Shown piece by piece: positions 682 through 38,958 of a stretch of DNA of 39,733 nt (position 1 is its first letter; the number at the start of each line of letters is the position of its first letter). Location of the stretch: the NCBI GenBank assembly GCA_035473115.1, contig DATION010000007.1, positions 1 through 39,733 on the forward strand. The letters are read 5' to 3'. The stretch comes from Candidatus Udaeobacter sp. GTDB lineage: Bacteria; Patescibacteriota; Patescibacteriia; Magasanikbacterales; GWA2-37-8. Below the pieces are notes generated by a model, which did no database searches, was not told the DNA's origin, and saw only the letters and a program-made list of their open reading frames with translations. The position numbers and the translations under genes are program-made.

Positions 682-792
682 AACTAAAAAAGCCTTTCTG
701 TATAAGAAAGGCTTTTTTAAATTTGTTTTATACATCCGAGCTCGCATAACCTAACAAATTAATTATTAAGTTGTGCGAACGGCTCGGATGTG
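682..792. repeat. 111-bp two-hairpin element, copy 1
   Basis: 105/111 identical to 2406-2516 by manual alignment; terminator-like hairpin plus a long imperfect hairpin. Confidence 0.95.
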
Positions 793-4240: not shown

Positions 4241-4315
4241 TAATTTATTTGTAATAAAAACAGCGCGAAAATCTGGTTTATATAAAAGGCGGGAAAGTTT
4301 TTTGGGTGTTTTTAT

Positions 4316-4355
4316 AAAAATAACCCCGCCCTTCGCGAAGGGTGGGGTTATTTTT
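4316..4355. terminator. Bidirectional intrinsic terminator
   Basis: aaaaataaccccgcccttc-gc-gaagggtggggttattttt. Confidence 0.8.
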
Positions 4356-4369
4356 AATTTATTAACTAT

Positions 4370-4738: not shown

Positions 4739-4907
4739 AGATAAATTGGTTATTGGTTTTAGTAAGCTGTCGACCTTTTTTTAAGTTGACTCATTATAGC
4801 ACTATATAAAATAGCGTCAAATGATTTTTTACTGCCTTTTACAGATCTGTAATATATAACAATAAAACACTATATTAGTAGTGTTTTATTGTTTTTTTCG
4901 TACCTAT

Positions 4908-7588: not shown

Positions 7589-9664
7589 CTAGTCCAGACT
7601 TTCCAGCCATTTCAGCAAGGCAGGTAAGTATTTGTACTGCCCCGGTGTTTTATAGCCATGGCCTTCACCAGGCAGAATTAGGCATACGACCTGTTTGCCC
7701 ATGGCAATAGCTTTGTAGCAGAAGTTAAGTGTCTCGTCAGTCGGAACCCTATTATCGGATCCTCCTGCGTCGAGAAACAGCGGAACGCTCAGCAGATCAA
7801 TGTGGTTTATCGGAGATCGGTCGTTCCACTTGTCGATGATTTCCTTCGGCCACTTGTCCGGATCTTTGTCTAGATCCGCAAATTTCATAAGGTCCTTGTA
7901 CCAGAGTCGAATGTTTCCGTTCTTGAGGGCGTTGATGAGATCAGAAATTCCAAAATCACTCCACCCGAACCCAAACTGGAAACTTTCGGTTATGCCGTCG
8001 ACCTGGCCTGGGAAGGTTAACGCGCGTAAGGTGTCATAACCCCCGCGGCTACCCCCGAACACTCCGATCTGTTTGTTTGGTACCTTGAGGTAATTAGCCA
8101 GCCATTTCCCGGCCTTCAGTGCATCAAGCGTTTCCATTCCTCCCAAATCACCATATCCCATAGTCTGGAATTTGATGCCAAAGTCTGTGGTACCTCTTGG
8201 AGCCGGACTCATTACATAATATCCGGCAGCGCACAGAATTTGGAAGTAGGTATTCCATCTGTTGAACCCACCGTAAAACGATAGGACCATGCCTTTTTTG
8301 TTGGCGCCGGTCTGTGGGTTTTTGGGAGAAAGGAGGTAGGCATGGAGTTGACCGTTTTTTTCTCCTTCGACTTCAGGCCTGTTCTCGCTTTTTGAGTCGG
8401 AAGCATCGAAGCTTACTTTTTGATAAGTACATTGCCGGAGTTGGTTTAGTAACTCCGGCGGATATCCACCGCGGTCAAAGACTTTGATCTGGCCGTCAGT
8501 GATGACAGCTTCTCGTTGGGTAAATGGATCATCCAGAGCACTTGTATAGAACCCAATTCTGCTCCCGCCGTAGTCGTCAATAGTAACTGTTCCAGCAAAT
8601 TCCTTGCTATCTACAACCTTGCCGTTTGTCCAGTCGATAGACATCAGGCTAGTCCGGAGAGGATTTCCCTCCAGGCCAATCACATATACCTTGCCGCTAG
8701 GTTGGCGGATAGCTATGGCGTCTTTCATGTTTTTGCCAGGTGGAGAAACCAGCCTGGTTTTACCACTCGTGAGGTCATATGCGTACACCAGAGTCTCGTC
8801 TGTATCCTCATCCGTAGCGAATAAAAAGTGAGACGCATCAGGCCACTCGTTGAGTGGATACATGTCGATCCGCTTTTTACTGGTATCACTAAGAACTCTC
8901 GGTTCTCCGCTGCCGTCCAAGGGAATGTAGATCAGGTTGTTTCTCTGACGGTCACTGTTAGCCACGAACTGAACTACGAGAGCTTTTCCATCAGGACGCC
9001 AAGCTGGTCCACCCCAGGTTAGTTTCATACTGGGAGGTGAGTCGCGGTACACAACCCGTTCGCTGTAGTTACTTAAGTCTAGAATATAAATAGCTCCTGA
9101 TGAAGCTTCGTCTTTGGCAGAGCGGCCAGTGTACACCAGAGATCGACGGTCCGGACTTACAGTCAAGCCGTATACGTAATACACACCCTCGCCGGTAATC
9201 TTACGCTCTTCTCCCGTTTTGAGGTCGAGAGCATAAAGTACTTTGTTCTCATCATTGACCTGGTCGGCCAACATGATGATCTCTCCGGGACGTTGCGGAT
9301 TACAGAATGCTCCGCCAAAGTTCCGTTTGGCAAAGTCGCGCGGAGAAATAATCCTCCCCTTGCTGAAATCGACCCGCTCTTCGCTGCGCGGATCGAATTT
9401 CACCATCATCAGCCGTTCTTGTTCTCCCTTGAGTTTGTAAAACATGGCTCCACAACCGATGTCCACGATTGGAGCGGTGTAGGGCCAGCCCTCGAGGTAG
9501 GCGGTGAGGTTGATCTCCCTGTTTCCTTTGAAATGGAAGATTTTATCCGGCGGCTTTCCTGTTGCTGCCGTGCTGGCAGTCGATTGCACTGGGTGGATGG
9601 AGCAGGCGGAAGCTAGCCCCAATACCCCTAACAACAACACTAACGCAAAATTCACTTTTCTCAT
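7589..9664 (-). CDS. S9 (prolyl oligopeptidase family) serine peptidase lipoprotein with a TolB-like beta-propeller
   Basis: ATG 9664 after AGGAGG; lipobox LASAC; GGSRGG nucleophile elbow, DNRV and GEGH triad motifs; SPDR/RPDG propeller repeats. Confidence 0.88.
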   Translation of the reverse strand: MRKVNFALVLLLGVLGLASACSIHPVQSTASTAATGKPPDKIFHFKGNREINLTAYLEGWPYTAPIVDIGCGAMFYKLKGEQERLMMVKFDPRSEERVDFSKGRIISPRDFAKRNFGGAFCNPQRPGEIIMLADQVNDENKVLYALDLKTGEERKITGEGVYYVYGLTVSPDRRSLVYTGRSAKDEASSGAIYILDLSNYSERVVYRDSPPSMKLTWGGPAWRPDGKALVVQFVANSDRQRNNLIYIPLDGSGEPRVLSDTSKKRIDMYPLNEWPDASHFLFATDEDTDETLVYAYDLTSGKTRLVSPPGKNMKDAIAIRQPSGKVYVIGLEGNPLRTSLMSIDWTNGKVVDSKEFAGTVTIDDYGGSRIGFYTSALDDPFTQREAVITDGQIKVFDRGGYPPELLNQLRQCTYQKVSFDASDSKSENRPEVEGEKNGQLHAYLLSPKNPQTGANKKGMVLSFYGGFNRWNTYFQILCAAGYYVMSPAPRGTTDFGIKFQTMGYGDLGGMETLDALKAGKWLANYLKVPNKQIGVFGGSRGGYDTLRALTFPGQVDGITESFQFGFGWSDFGISDLINALKNGNIRLWYKDLMKFADLDKDPDKWPKEIIDKWNDRSPINHIDLLSVPLFLDAGGSDNRVPTDETLNFCYKAIAMGKQVVCLILPGEGHGYKTPGQYKYLPALLKWLESLD

Positions 9665-11453: not shown

Positions 11454-11489
11454 AAACAAAAAATTCCGAATAATCGGAATTTTTTGTTT
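11454..11489. terminator. Bidirectional terminator 3' of hup
   Basis: aaacaaaaaattccga-ataa-tcggaattttttgttt. Confidence 0.8.
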
Positions 11490-26995: not shown

Positions 26996-27187
26996 ATGAA
27001 ATGGTATAAAAAACAATTGGATCAGCTAAAAAAATCTAAAGCAGGGCCGGTTGTGGCAGACGAAGAAAATGATACAAAAAAAATTTCAAAAAATACGTTT
27101 AACTTAAATAAGCCGATAGGAAAAAGTCATTTCCCCAATCCAGTTGCTGCCAGCAACAAAAATCGTCCTAAAACTGATTCTAAATAA
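26996..27187 (+). CDS. Small basic hypothetical protein
   Basis: 63-aa Lys-rich ORF followed by terminator aaaaacttcc...gggaagttttt. Confidence 0.6.
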   Translation: MKWYKKQLDQLKKSKAGPVVADEENDTKKISKNTFNLNKPIGKSHFPNPVAASNKNRPKTDSK

Positions 27188-27237
27188 AAAACTTCCTTTT
27201 AGCGGGAAGTTTTTTATAGTTAATTTTTATAAAAAAA

Positions 27238-33664: not shown

Positions 33665-33693
33665 TTGACATTGATTTGTCTTTTATATATAAT
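33665..33693 (+). promoter_or_regulatory. Consensus sigma70 promoter for tRNA-Asn
   Basis: TTGACA-17 nt-TATAAT. Confidence 0.88.
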
Positions 33694-33707: not shown

Positions 33708-33779
33708 TCCCAGGTAGCGCAGCGGTAGCGCAGTTGGCTGTTAACCAATTGGTCGTCGGTTCGAATCCGACCCTGGGAG
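33708..33779 (+). tRNA. tRNA-Asn(GTT)
   Basis: Acceptor tcccagg/cctggga; ttggc-tGTTaa-ccaa anticodon arm; TTCGAAT. Confidence 0.95.
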
Positions 33780-33813
33780 CAACTTACAAGCAGTAACTAC
33801 TTCTAAATATAAT

Positions 33814-34447: not shown

Positions 34448-37081
34448 ATGAAAATTATTTTTAAAAAAATATTAGTTGTTTTCACAATATTTTTTTATTT
34501 AACCCCTGCCACTTTTGTATTGGCAAACCAAGATAGTAAAGCTGATAATGCCGTTTTGGACGGGGATTTAATCGCGGCTCAGGAAGCAGGCAATGCCAAG
34601 GCAAGTAATAAAGATAAGACCCCTCCGGTTATATCTGGAGTGGAATCATTTTCAGTTTCCACAAGCTCTGCTTCAATTGCTTGGGTAACAGATGAGCCAG
34701 CTGATTCAGACATAGATTACGGAGTAGCGCCCGGACTAAATTTGCATGGTCCGGCCAACTCAACTCTCCTTACATCTCATATTATTGTCCTTTCAGGACT
34801 TATCCCAAATACTAATTATAGTTTTTGTGTTATTTCGGTAGATGATTCGCATAATAGAGCTCGGGATTGCGGCCATGCATTTATCACAAACTCCGACATA
34901 CCAACAGATACGAACCCGCCAGTTATTACAAACATACAACTTTTAAATGTCTCTACATCTACCGTAACTGTAAATTGGGTGACTGACGAAATTTCTTTTG
35001 GACAAATTGAGTATGGAGTAAGTAATAGTTATGGCTCTGTTACTCCGCTTTCAGTTACTTTAGATGTTAATCATTCAACTGTAATAACAGACCTTACTGC
35101 CAGCACTACCTATCATCTCCGTATTCGCGCCAGAGATGATTCGGGCAATGAGTCTTTTTCTGTTGATATTCCATTTTCTACCTTGGCCAATCCAACGGAA
35201 CCGCATACAACCCCTCCGATTATTTCGGCAATTCTGCCGCATGAAATTAGTCAAACATTCATCCATGTTTCTTGGATGACAGACGAACTAGCAGACAGTC
35301 AAGTTGAATACGGTACCAGCACAAATTATGGTTTTATGACCCGGCTTGATACGATTCCAGTTTTGGCGCATGAGCAATTCCCGAATAATTTAATGCCTGA
35401 TACTGCTTATCACCTAAGAGTACGTTCGCATGATTATGCAGGCAACTTGTCCGTTTCAGGGGATTATGAATTTAGAACTATTGTCGGCACTTCAACTAAT
35501 CCCTATCCGATTTTATCAGCCATTGCTGTTACAGAAATCAGAACATCATCAGTGGTAATAGGATGGACTACCGATAAGCCTGCGACATCCAGAGTTGAGT
35601 ATGGGTTGGCAAGCTCTTATGGACATAGTACGGCGCAAGATGATTCGCTTGTGACTTTGCATAGCCAAGCCATATATAACCTTAGCCAGCATACGACTTA
35701 TCATTTTAGAGTTATTTCTTCTGATAATCTCGGGAATACTTCATATTCAACGGATACAATTTTTGAAACTGCCGCCGGAGAAGCCGATCATATTCCTCCT
35801 ACGGCTATTCATGATTTGACAGCTAATGAAATTGATCAAACATCTCTTACTTTAAATTGGACTGGGCCGGAAGATACTTCCGGAATAATATCGTATGATA
35901 TTAATTCTTCACTATCACCAATCATAGAAGAAAATTTTTTTGATCCTCCTGTTGTGCATGAAGCTGTAATTACAGCCGATGATGCGGAAGGCCACGGCTT
36001 CGAGCATACTTATCAAATAAGCGGTCTGGCTCCTAATGCCATTATCTTTTTTGCTATAAAAGCTTCGGATCCGTATGGAAATATTTCTCCTGTATCAAAT
36101 GTAATTTCAGTAAAAACATTGTCAGCATCAGTAAATAGTTCCGGGGGAGGAACTTCTAGCGGATCTTTAATCGGGAGTGTGGAGGGCGGGTATTCGTATA
36201 ATGGTAAGTTATTTGCGATTGATAAAAAAGAATTTGTTATTAATGATAAGCAGCCGCCTGCCAGAGTAAGCGATGTTCGAGCTGCCGGTATTGATAAAGC
36301 AGTTATTTTATCGTGGAAGGCGCCTTCTGATTCAGATTTTAAAAAAGTACTTGTCGTACGCAGCGAATCACAATATCCGGCCAACCCTCTTGCTGGAACG
36401 GTTGTATATGAAGGTTCAAGGAGAATTGTTAGTGATATCAATCTTCTTAATGGCAAGACCTATTATTATTCAATTTTTTCTGCGGATGAAGTACCGAATT
36501 ATTCTCATCCTGTTCAGCTTTCCATCGCGCCAATAGTCAGCTCCAAGCAGTATAATTTTGTTACCGGTGAAGAAGGCAAGATTAATATTTTTACAAATAG
36601 AGATTTTGGTTTAGGCGATAGGGGACCGGAAGTTCAATATGTGCAAAGACTTTTATCAACCAATCCGCTTTTATATCCAGAAGGTCTGGTTACAGGTTAT
36701 TTTGGTCCTTTAACACGAAAAGCCTTAATTAGATTTCAGCATAAGTATAAAATCCCGGAGACCGGAGTGGTTGATAACGATGTTCGAGCGGTGGCTAAGA
36801 ATTTAACAGTTGTTCATGTGGTGACTCCTATTGCTAATCCTAATATTGATCTTAAGTTTGGCATGCGTGCGGAGAGCGTAAAAATTATGCAAACCGGTCT
36901 GGTGCAGCTTGGGTATTTGAGTGAAGATTCAGTCAGCGGATATTTTGATTCCAAGACGCTGGCTGCGGTAATCAAATTTCAAAAAGATAATAATATTTTT
37001 CCAGCTGTAGGTTATGTGGGGCCTATCACCAGAGCCAAAGCTGCGCAAATACTTCGTGTAACTACCACTTCTGTTCAGTAA
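34448..37081 (+). CDS. Secreted protein with six FN3-like repeats and two C-terminal peptidoglycan-binding domains
   Basis: Signal peptide; repeats PP.I...W.TDE....EYG...L...T.Y; C-terminal GYFGPLTRKALIRFQ and GYFDSKTLAAVIKFQ. Confidence 0.85.
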   Translation: MKIIFKKILVVFTIFFYLTPATFVLANQDSKADNAVLDGDLIAAQEAGNAKASNKDKTPPVISGVESFSVSTSSASIAWVTDEPADSDIDYGVAPGLNLHGPANSTLLTSHIIVLSGLIPNTNYSFCVISVDDSHNRARDCGHAFITNSDIPTDTNPPVITNIQLLNVSTSTVTVNWVTDEISFGQIEYGVSNSYGSVTPLSVTLDVNHSTVITDLTASTTYHLRIRARDDSGNESFSVDIPFSTLANPTEPHTTPPIISAILPHEISQTFIHVSWMTDELADSQVEYGTSTNYGFMTRLDTIPVLAHEQFPNNLMPDTAYHLRVRSHDYAGNLSVSGDYEFRTIVGTSTNPYPILSAIAVTEIRTSSVVIGWTTDKPATSRVEYGLASSYGHSTAQDDSLVTLHSQAIYNLSQHTTYHFRVISSDNLGNTSYSTDTIFETAAGEADHIPPTAIHDLTANEIDQTSLTLNWTGPEDTSGIISYDINSSLSPIIEENFFDPPVVHEAVITADDAEGHGFEHTYQISGLAPNAIIFFAIKASDPYGNISPVSNVISVKTLSASVNSSGGGTSSGSLIGSVEGGYSYNGKLFAIDKKEFVINDKQPPARVSDVRAAGIDKAVILSWKAPSDSDFKKVLVVRSESQYPANPLAGTVVYEGSRRIVSDINLLNGKTYYYSIFSADEVPNYSHPVQLSIAPIVSSKQYNFVTGEEGKINIFTNRDFGLGDRGPEVQYVQRLLSTNPLLYPEGLVTGYFGPLTRKALIRFQHKYKIPETGVVDNDVRAVAKNLTVVHVVTPIANPNIDLKFGMRAESVKIMQTGLVQLGYLSEDSVSGYFDSKTLAAVIKFQKDNNIFPAVGYVGPITRAKAAQILRVTTTSVQ

Positions 37082-37100
37082 AATAGAAAATTTGTTCAGG

Positions 37101-37138
37101 AATAATAAAAGCAGCTTTGATTAGCTGCTTTTATTATT
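37101..37138. terminator. Bidirectional terminator
   Basis: aataataaaagcagc-tttgatta-gctgcttttattatt. Confidence 0.85.
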
Positions 37139-37678
37139 TTCTCAAGCTCTTTCCAAGAAAGGGATTAAGAAATGATAGGCGAAGGTTTGCGGTCCCTTCG
37201 CCTTTACTGCCGATCTCTATCGGTATATCTCTTGATGGAACGCACCGTGGTTGCGTTCGTTTTTTTCTAGGCCTTACTAGCCCTAGGGAACATGCCTCAA
37301 GTTGGCAGCTCCGCAGCCCCATGCTGCTATCCTGTTTTTTGCGATCCTGATGAAACTAGAGAAGCAATCCTTATACCGTTCAAGTTGCAACGGCTCGCTG
37401 GGGATTGTTTGGAAGCTTGGGGTGCTTCCCTCTGTTTCATTTAGTTTTCGTGCCTACAATCACCTTTGCTCTGCAGAGCACAAACGTTTCACCGTTTCTC
37501 TGTCGCTGTGCCTTCAATCAGAGCGCTGTGACCTTTTATACATCATTGCCCACGGGCAATAATTTGGTGTAGGGCGCTGTTCACTCCACCATTTATATTG
37601 ATAATTTTTTATCCGTATAAACGGTGGAGTGATTTTTTTATTAGTTTCTTCAAAGAACTTTTCGTTTCTTTATCTTAA
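37101..37678 (-). ncRNA. Candidate large (~575 nt) highly structured ncRNA, family unknown
   Basis: Own near-consensus promoter and terminator, no credible ORF, more than ten hairpins or long-range helices. Confidence 0.7.
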
Positions 37679-37684
37679 CGACTC

Positions 37685-37713
37685 AGTATATCTTATTTTA
37701 GTTTTTTTGTCAA
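37685..37713 (-). promoter_or_regulatory. sigma70 promoter for the large RNA
   Basis: TTGACA-17 nt-TATACT. Confidence 0.8.
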
Positions 37714-37826
37714 TAGTTTGTGCCTCGGAGGATAAAATTTATGGCTTAAATTAGCCGAAATATCGTCTTTATTTATCCACAGGGTAAATTTATTATAGTT
37801 AAGAATTATGTTATCCACTTTATAAT

Positions 37827-37855
37827 TTGACACTTGCGTAATCAACTACTAAAAT
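37827..37855 (+). promoter_or_regulatory. sigma70 promoter for the ArsR gene
   Basis: TTGACA-17 nt-TAAAAT. Confidence 0.8.
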
Positions 37856-37856
37856 A

Positions 37857-37882
37857 TTTAGGTGTTTAGCTAAACACCTAAA
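37857..37882. promoter_or_regulatory. 26-bp perfect palindrome, likely ArsR operator
   Basis: tttaggtgtttag|ctaaacacctaaa between the -10 and the ArsR start codon. Confidence 0.75.
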
Positions 37883-37885
37883 ATT

Positions 37886-38233
37886 ATGCTAACCGAGATT
37901 GAGATAAAACAATTAAAAAAATTGGTAGATTGGGACGAGGATAAAATTTCTCCGCTCTTTCAAGCATTAAGTGATCCCAACAGGTGCCGAATTTTGCGTA
38001 CTCTAATAAAAACCGGCAAAAGAGATTTTTCTGTAAGTGAGATTGCTCAGCTTTTGGAAGTTTCTATTCCTACAGCCTCCGAACATTTAAGCATTCTAGA
38101 ACGCAGCGGAGCCTTGGTTCGAAAAAGATTGAAACAGCAGGTGAGTTATGAAGTAAAAAGCGGAGACCCATTAATCAAGTCTATTATTTCAGTTATTAAA
38201 GCTAATGAGTCTTTGTCTAAAAACCAAGATTAA
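37886..38233 (+). CDS. ArsR/SmtB family transcriptional regulator
   Basis: FQALSDPNRCRIL, SVSEIAQLL.VS.PTASEHL..L...G.V. Confidence 0.92.
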   Translation: MLTEIEIKQLKKLVDWDEDKISPLFQALSDPNRCRILRTLIKTGKRDFSVSEIAQLLEVSIPTASEHLSILERSGALVRKRLKQQVSYEVKSGDPLIKSIISVIKANESLSKNQD

Positions 38234-38301: not shown

Positions 38302-38958
38302 ATGACAAAAAGTGTAACATTATGGGTTGTGGTCGCTCTTATTATCGGCGGCAGTATTGGCTATATGTATGGAGTTAAAAAAGCTTCAATGGTTGTTGCT
38401 CCAACTAATTCTTCAACAAGCGCTAAAAGTGTGTTGCTCCATAGCGCTATGAGAAAATTATGGGAAGATCATGTAACCTGGACTCGCTTATATATAGTTG
38501 AAGCTACTGAAGGATTAAAAGGCACCAATGATACAGCTGCTCGTTTGCTTAAAAATCAAGAGGATATCGGCAATGCTATAAAACCATTTTATGGAGAAGC
38601 TGCCGGTAATCAGTTAACTACTATCTTGAAACAGCATGTTATGGGAGCAGTAGATGTTTTGGCTGCTGCTAAAGCCGGTGATGCAGCTAAATTAGATACA
38701 GCTAAAACTAATTGGTATAAAAATGGCGATGATATCGCTACATTTTTAAGCGGAGCTAACCCAAACAGCTGGTCATTACAAAATATGAAAGAAGGTATGG
38801 CTATGCATTTGGATTTAACTCTTACCGAAGCGGTTGACGAGTTAAAAGATCAATATGGCAAGTCAGTTGAAGATTATGATAAAGTCCACGAACATATTCT
38901 TGGCTTGGCTGATTTATTGAGTGATGGCATTGTGGCACAATTTCCTGACAAATTCTAA
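38302..38958 (+). CDS. Exported His-containing helical-bundle protein
   Basis: N-terminal TM; LWEDHVTWTR, QH, MHL and HEHI motifs. Confidence 0.7.
   Translation: MTKSVTLWVVVALIIGGSIGYMYGVKKASMVVAPTNSSTSAKSVLLHSAMRKLWEDHVTWTRLYIVEATEGLKGTNDTAARLLKNQEDIGNAIKPFYGEAAGNQLTTILKQHVMGAVDVLAAAKAGDAAKLDTAKTNWYKNGDDIATFLSGANPNSWSLQNMKEGMAMHLDLTLTEAVDELKDQYGKSVEDYDKVHEHILGLADLLSDGIVAQFPDKF

Follow-up and report, generated by a model that had tools for sequence, protein, structure and literature searches.

A candidate large structured noncoding RNA gene in a Patescibacteria-like genome

The longest intergenic region of the window (the whole 39.7-kb stretch of DNA analysed here) covers 804 nt at 37082-37885 and houses a candidate RNA unit, with a predicted transcript of about 575 nt running on the minus strand from ~37679 to ~37105. 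From the sequence, we regard this unit with moderate confidence as a stand-alone structured noncoding RNA (ncRNA) gene of a new class, lineage-restricted as far as has been seen. Its promoter, terminator, G+C content, fold, and unpaired-adenosine signals may, in combination, be explained best by an independently transcribed and folded ncRNA, an interpretation in which we place middling trust; weighing against it, homologues are lacking, the element is missing in relatives, and both strands fold alike. An initial annotation had named the locus a candidate new large ncRNA. That description holds for a structured, G+C-rich, promoter-to-terminator unit with no Rfam family and no coding sign; what falls short is the step to a conserved functional class, as no homologue with covarying pairs turned up in any reachable collection and the element is absent in the nearest relatives.

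A unit with its own promoter and terminator

The signals and genes that frame the unit are as follows.

34448-37081, plus strand: convergent 877-aa gene, with fibronectin-III-like repeats and two PG_binding_1 domains
37101-37138, both strands: bidirectional intrinsic terminator, a perfect 16-bp stem with GCAGCU/AGCUGC core and A and U tracts
37685-37713, minus strand: sigma-70-type promoter, with -35 TTGACA (37713-37708), 17-nt spacer, and -10 TATACT (37690-37685), an 11/12 match
37773-37781 and 37811-37819, plus strand: pair of DnaA boxes, the first perfect (TTATCCACA, the sole perfect one in the window) and the second an 8/9 box (TTATCCACT)
37857-37882: palindrome with perfect 11-bp arms, TTTAGGTGTTT-AGCT-AAACACCTAAA, between the ArsR -10 (37850-37855) and ATG
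37886-38233, plus strand: divergent ArsR-type HTH gene, the other flank of the RNA unit

The minus-strand promoter lies exactly where it had been placed, with a predicted start at ~37679-37676, and the strong terminator claimed for the far end of the unit is equally plain, as a perfect 16-nt inverted repeat and U tract at 37138-37101. Sites matching the promoter consensus at 11/12 positions or better number five in the whole window, against about 1.1 expected in first-order Markov random sequence of the same composition; all five are intergenic and each is oriented toward a gene, the ArsR promoter and a 12/12 site just 5' of tRNA-Asn being among them. This last site (33665-33693, plus strand) is a perfect TTGACA-17-TATAAT directly 5' of tRNA-Asn (33708-33780), which shows that canonical sigma-70 signals serve RNA genes in this organism.

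The inverted repeat of the terminator (37101-37116 and 37123-37138) is followed on the minus strand by UUUUAUUAUU. It is common to the RNA and to the convergent 877-aa gene, whose stop lies at 37081, and its design is that of other bidirectional terminators in the genome. Perfect 14-21-bp hairpins with A and U tracts end many genes of the window (685-719, 2409-2443, 4315-4356, 4858-4893, 11454-11489, and 27184-27217), and those at 685-719 and 2409-2443 are near-identical in sequence.

Predicted fold: a long hairpin, a junction, and a hairpin string

The whole unit folds at -209.4 kcal/mol, with z = -10.67 against shuffles on the minus strand and z = -10.61 on the plus strand. The whole-unit score owes much to the long hairpin H1 and the terminator; without these, the core (37140-37585) has z = -4.37 on the minus strand. 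Pairing probability is near 1 for most helices, and every helix claimed for the unit is present both in the sequence and in the minimum-free-energy (MFE) fold. A structure predicted from a single sequence is no evidence for conserved structure (PMC8250186). In a 150-nt sliding scan, this locus alone in the contig has several adjacent windows that are all strongly negative, and the other extreme windows are, where inspected, mostly ordinary long-stem terminators. From 5' to 3' on the minus strand, the predicted parts are the following.

37633-37679, minus strand: A/U-rich 5' leader, 23% G+C, essentially unstructured (z = -0.9), with an A7 run at its end
37581-37632, minus strand: hairpin H1, 24-nt arms that are 88% complementary and a 4-nt AAAA loop (z = -9.6 minus, -10.0 plus)
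37446-37580, minus strand (folded as 37446-37583): 5' domain with hairpins AUUGCC/GGCAAU, AACG/CGUU, and UGCUC/GAGCA (z = -1.7 minus, -3.0 plus)
37350-37440, minus strand (folded as 37347-37445): three-way-junction domain, pair probabilities near 1 (z = -4.9 minus, -3.7 plus)
37170-37346, minus strand: 3' string, six short hairpins separated by A-rich linkers (z = -4.8 minus, -3.0 plus)
37327-37313, 37307-37293, ~37287-37266, 37258-37238, 37225-37208, and 37203-37177, minus strand: the hairpins of the 3' string in the MFE fold

Since H1 lacks a following U tract on the minus strand, it does not terminate the minus-strand transcript; on the plus strand, T7 lies 3' of it. The 5' domain, which also contains a poorly defined G+C-rich stretch with three ACAGCG copies, is statistically the weakest and folds better on the plus strand. 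Within the three-way junction, the closing helix pairs AUGAAAC and AGAG with CUCU and GUUUCAU, the first arm is GGAAGC/GCUUCC, and the second stacks AAUCC/GGAUU on CCGUU/AACGG beneath the loop GCAACUUG.

The octamer CAACUUGA occurs in the loops of two hairpins on the minus strand, one in the three-way-junction domain (37387-37380) and the other in the second hairpin of the 3' string (37304-37297). Separately, the apex CCGUGG of hairpin 37561-37546 is complementary to a CCACGG loop near 37250-37245. The recurring loops and this complementarity may be contact sites or chance. A reading of the predicted fold found no GNRA or UNCG tetraloop among the hairpin loops and no recognisable tertiary motif; taken with the simple 3' hairpin string and the weak 5' domain, the missing loops would argue against an “ornate” tertiary fold.

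Choice of strand: unpaired bases and hairpins without tails

At 48% G+C, the core exceeds both coding sequence (41%) and all other intergenic regions (25-44%). Unpaired adenosines are enriched in functional RNAs, and the unpaired bases of the minus-strand core (49% A, 13% U) are the most skewed among 87 windows, with A-rich coding sense strands coming near this value. Hairpins with T-rich tails inside the unit number five on the plus strand, not counting H1 with its T7, and zero on the minus strand, so that a minus-strand transcript would meet no premature intrinsic terminator. The direction of the promoter together with the terminator, the tail-free hairpins, and the unpaired-A skew all favour the minus strand. 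Because the plus strand folds equally well, fold statistics alone cannot separate an RNA from DNA palindromes, and the counts of G-U pairs (12 vs 17) are uninformative for the choice.

The symmetry of the fold and the T-rich tails invite a different explanation, in which the hairpins serve the plus strand: as an insulator or a set of reserve terminators behind the 877-aa gene, shielding the ArsR promoter, or as an origin-like cluster of hairpins in single-stranded DNA. Candidate stops for such a function exist at 37101-37138, at 37238-37258 followed by T7, and at H1 followed by T7. We nevertheless consider it improbable, given that the 877-aa gene already stops at a perfect terminator, that the promoter points the opposite way, that no replication or mobile-element genes occur among the neighbours scanned, and that some 500 nt of nested helices, the three-way junction for example, would be left unexplained.

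A weak promoter-like site on the plus strand (within 37535-37640; TTTATA-17-AATAAT, 9/12), followed by H1 and T7, could give an antisense RNA of ~70 nt against the 5' part of the long RNA; 9/12 sites are frequent by chance in this window.

Coding potential: a 62-aa frame without relatives

The one open reading frame in the unit that had been flagged, and called spurious-looking, is a 62-aa basic ORF at 37134-37322 on the minus strand. It is there as described, has no relatives, and has an atypical start context. Should it be translated, the unit would be the mRNA of a small protein behind a long structured leader, and an AGGA lying 7 nt 5' of the ATG is compatible with this. Set against that reading are the predicted fold, which puts the ATG inside the loop of a 5-bp hairpin and leads the frame through six stable hairpins, and the habit of the genome's own genes, which use AT-rich leaders rather than Shine-Dalgarno sites.

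The searches for relatives, which together span ~15 billion proteins, point the same way. No Pfam family matches the ORF. All stop-free frames of at least 22 codons were searched in concatenated form against 5.8 billion protein clusters, with no relative at E <= 1. The clusters contain no self-match either, which means that the source's gene caller left the 62-aa ORF uncalled. Searched exhaustively with HMMER against 1.84 billion representatives, the longest frame has no match. No reading frame of the region thus has a relative in this whole set, nor did the codon-type homologues that would have spoken against an RNA appear. Coding by the region is unlikely, and we hold a small-protein mRNA to be highly improbable.

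Across the window, gene starts have almost no Shine-Dalgarno sequences and are preceded by AT-rich stretches (for example, taaaatATG), which suggests initiation independent of such sites in this lineage.

Comparison with known RNA families

At gathering thresholds, Rfam 15 returns only the four tRNAs of the window, and the cmscan outcome agrees with the earlier statement that no family-specific motif is recognisable. With E <= 10 and relaxed filters, segments of 1001 and 501 nt gave only chance matches of the terminator and miRNA types; RNase P, tmRNA, group I and II introns, OLE, ROOL, GOLLD, HEARO, and raiA were all negative even at this level. The absence of the universal motifs of RNase P, tmRNA, and group I/II introns, also part of the initial annotation, is a point on which covariance models, ARAGORN, and a reading of the sequence agree.

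Individual classes were set aside on further grounds. The P4 helix of RNase P RNA has the consensus strands GGAAAGUCC and ACAGAAnCCGGCUUA, neither of which is found on reading the sequence, and ARAGORN reports the four tRNAs and no tmRNA in the window. Group I/II introns have no Rfam match save a 14-nt chance one, and the unit has its own promoter and does not lie inside a gene. A GAGCCGU at ~37395-37389 is similar to what we take to be the start of group II domain V, without the upper helix and tetraloop. ROOL is of the same size class as the unit and gave no match to its covariance model at the gathering threshold or at E <= 10 (1001 and 501 nt). GOLLD is ~800 nt long and often located in prophages beside tRNAs; the unit is ~575 nt, has no match to the GOLLD model, and stands among six hypothetical neighbours without a phage-family match, although tRNA-Asn is 3.3 kb away. 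OLE genes are adjacent to oapA, oapB, and oapC in Firmicutes extremophile hosts; the neighbours here are an FN3/PG-binding surface protein and an ArsR regulator, and the OLE model does not match.

TIGR arrays are frequent in Patescibacteria and consist of two alternating 8-12-nt repeats with 9-nt spacers, or of stem-loop units, repeated 5-15 times beside a Nop-domain Tas gene (PMC12045711). The unit has no direct-repeat family, its loops measure 4-10 nt, and Pfam finds no Nop domain among 18 proteins of the window. A type I toxin-antitoxin system was rejected for want of a hydrophobic peptide, and a ColE1 RNA II-like primer for want of a plasmid context; a C/D-box-like motif (AUGAUGU...CUGA) was dropped along with these ideas, repeats, Nop protein, hydrophobic peptide, and plasmid context all being lacking.

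It is also conceivable that the unit belongs, as a strongly diverged member, to a known large RNA family (ROOL, GOLLD, OLE, RNase P, or another) or to a published family outside Rfam 15. Patescibacterial RNAs are often divergent, and ROOL is similar in size; these points lend the idea some credit. OLE, at ~600 nt, is another family of comparable length (PMC9723947). We think it quite improbable all the same: no known family emerges at E <= 10 with relaxed filters over 501-1001 nt, the unit lacks the features universal to RNase P and tmRNA, and the literature searched describes no large RNA from Patescibacteria.

The search for homologues: probes, synteny, and an idle-spacer alternative

Exact or wobble-tolerant probes, as opposed to profiles, retrieved no homologue from GTDB genomes, JGI metagenomes, IMG/VR, phages, or plasmids. 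Three core-derived sequences, a 19-mer searched in GTDB and two 17-mers searched in IMG/VR, produced chance matches only, as judged by nhmmer, and a 14-mer core probe gave at least 120 matches. Wider coverage came from 24 distinct 24-nt probes with third positions free, derived from stop-free pseudo-translations of the RNA (six 8-residue stretches per scan) and covering most of 37150-37591; these found no relative in JGI metagenomes, GTDB, or IMG/VR. BLASTN at 65-70% sensitivity against phages and plasmids matched the promoter alone, in Enterococcus phages, and within the window there are no paralogues or repeats of the RNA. A whole-database search by nhmmer or cmsearch would be far more sensitive than such probes, and the inspected sequence from close relatives comes to ~50 kb. 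The result is accordingly “no homologue retrievable,” not “no homologue exists.”

Synteny was followed through both neighbouring genes in 11 related contigs in all, none of which has the RNA beside its ArsR or 877-aa gene. The ArsR protein has 17 homologues at 67-100% identity, of which the identical one is the window's own protein and the others lie at 67-87%. Ten related contigs with ArsR homologues of 70-87% identity were examined by nhmmer, and in none does the RNA accompany that gene. In the closest of these (87%, L028), a NAD_binding_1 gene occupies the position of the RNA, and homology to the window starts only at 37854, at the ArsR operator. The best homologue of the 877-aa protein is 67% identical; another gene comes after it, and the RNA is absent from its 3' side. 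Scanning GTDB with ArsR, and with the C-terminal end of the 877-aa protein, brought up distant relatives only; the source species itself is absent from GTDB, JGI metagenomes, and the contig index.

These absences speak for the main rival explanation, that the region is functionless, hairpin-rich spacer DNA, for example a relic of acquired or decayed DNA caught between what looks like a good promoter and the stretch that terminates the 877-aa gene, perhaps transcribed into an RNA that stays idle. In its favour, the region is an orphan in every collection searched, is missing at the syntenic positions of relatives, and consists of helices that are almost all perfect Watson-Crick and equal on both strands, as in young palindromes. 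Without selection on a transcript, however, it is hard to account for the concurrence of a promoter matching at 11/12 positions with a terminator, a G+C content above that of every other intergenic region, hairpins that lack U tracts on one strand only, and an unpaired fraction that is 49% A. Nor is there any six-frame similarity to a protein that would mark a decayed gene. We judge spacer DNA to be unlikely and the alternative to be taken most seriously; the stand-alone ncRNA gene remains the reading that we prefer.

One relative has a long gene-free stretch of its own. In L025 (GCA_030650605.1, JAUSDP010000049.1), a 1.1-kb gap lies 3' of a homologue of the 218-aa protein encoded beyond ArsR (see “Neighbourhood and side observations”); the gap, noted at 8953-9600, has z = -2.4 and no similarity to the RNA. 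It holds a tRNA (9524-9594, minus strand) and two further copies of the tRNA 3'-end-like segment GAUUCUCCCAAGGUCCACCA, repeats that look like scars of integration at the tRNA gene.

Possible working mode and place among large RNAs

If the ncRNA reading is right, the sequence suggests how the gene would work. A near-consensus sigma-70 promoter would fire at ~37679, and polymerase would pass the A/U-rich leader, the 24-bp hairpin, and then the G+C-rich core, which should form around a dozen well-defined helices on A-rich linkers, none followed by a U tract, before transcription halts at the hairpin and U tract at 37138-37101. The transcript would probably accumulate as a stable folded RNA, and it could act in trans as a scaffold or decoy, offering its hairpins to a protein or RNA partner. 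Such a hairpin-presenting role is suggested by the layout itself, in which a long 5' hairpin and a compact junction are joined to six short hairpins, with two loops carrying the octamer; the scaffold or decoy mode specifically is speculative, and we rate it as unlikely to be correct in that form. As no gene lies 3' on the same strand, the unit is not a cis-regulator, leader, or riboswitch. Nor is it a guide-RNA array or mobile-element RNA, for it lacks repeats and neither a nuclease nor a transposase accompanies it. An antisense role is unlikely.

More tentatively, and with doubt clearly prevailing, the unit might be the first of a new class of large (~575 nt) stand-alone structured Patescibacteria RNAs, with a standing like that of OLE, ROOL, and GOLLD, a fold and partner not yet seen, and relatives beyond the reach of exact probes. 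With those families it shares a stand-alone gene, a place in the 500-800-nt class, many helices, G+C content above its surroundings, a noncoding nature, and no obvious function. The differences are equally clear. The candidate does not match their Rfam models, and no OLE-associated protein genes are found by Pfam or NCBIfam among the nearby genes scanned. The known families rest on hundreds of covarying representatives, whereas the candidate has one, and their folds are deeply nested and ornate, whereas in its 3' half short hairpins simply follow one another.

Closer in kind are the “unnamed” or low-ranking candidates of the GC-IGR and DIMPL surveys, which likewise come from long G+C-rich intergenic regions in A+T-rich genomes and have predicted structure and fewer than five representatives (PMC11109978, PMC8723152). 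Among 4714 regions examined in 50 genomes, the GC-IGR survey counted 427 “unnamed” and 607 low-ranking ones (PMC11109978). In this scheme of the Breaker laboratory, our candidate would be an “unnamed” single-representative or low-ranking region. It is larger than most such candidates, with unusually clean transcription signals at both ends, and it stands above the average GC-IGR candidate by its size, clean promoter and terminator, strand-specific composition, and reduced, Patescibacteria-like host genome.

For working mode alone, RNAs of the CsrB/RsmZ type and 6S RNA offer an analogy, with action in trans and several hairpins on single-stranded linkers. Unlike CsrB/RsmZ, the candidate has no repeated GGA-type loop motif, only the octamer recurring twice; unlike 6S RNA, it has neither a long bulged duplex nor an Rfam match. 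TIGR arrays resemble it in being noncoding transcripts that end at a rho-independent terminator in Patescibacteria-like genomes, some as arrays of stem-loop units; they differ in their repeated units, in that its 4-10-nt loops are too small for two 9-nt spacers, and in that no Nop protein was detected among its neighbours.

Few large structured RNAs are known in bacteria outside the universal set, and each one characterised has revealed unexpected biology: OLE forms a membrane ribonucleoprotein, and ROOL and GOLLD are RNA-only homo-oligomers that form cages (PMC12286853). Patescibacteria genomes are tiny and have little spare DNA, and a 575-nt RNA gene with strong expression signals in such a genome, if real, is probably needed by the cell and would, being small, lend itself well to cryo-EM or pull-downs. 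If it proves a one-genome curiosity, it will serve as a calibration case of how promoter, terminator, G+C content, z-score, and A-rich loops can convince without evolutionary support.

Neighbourhood and side observations

The palindrome between the ArsR -10 and ATG is likely the autoregulatory operator of ArsR; no second operator half-site lies near the RNA promoter. The two DnaA boxes, 38 nt apart and in the same orientation, lie in the interval separating the RNA promoter from the divergent ArsR promoter. The cumulative GC skew makes no turn there, so there is no obvious origin, and the boxes may mediate DnaA-dependent regulation. An integrated element using tRNA-Asn (33708), 3.3 kb from the RNA unit, as its attachment site was considered and rejected: there are no flanking repeats, and the neighbours scanned include no integrase and match no phage family. 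The six hypothetical neighbour proteins have no PHROG or NCBIfam match. The nearest named relatives of the host's proteins belong to Paceibacterota, Kaiserbacteria, and Parcubacteria.

Downstream of ArsR, a conserved 218-aa protein (38302-38958, plus strand), with no Pfam, PHROG, or NCBIfam family, accompanies the ArsR gene in the relatives L025, L027, and L172. Relatives of this locus also carry a NAD_binding_1 or flavodoxin-like gene and glutamate dehydrogenase, and the neighbourhood may be a redox-stress module.

At the other end of the window, an 11/12 promoter with an extended -10 (629-601) and a terminator (305-278) flank a G+C-rich 44-aa ORF on the minus strand (unit 275-630, ORF 541-407), which has a CxxC, zinc-ribbon-like motif and a Shine-Dalgarno-like AAGGGAG. 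The first 7 kb of the window have a G+C content of 0.39-0.50 per 1-kb window, mostly above 0.41 and richer than the remainder, and may be acquired DNA.
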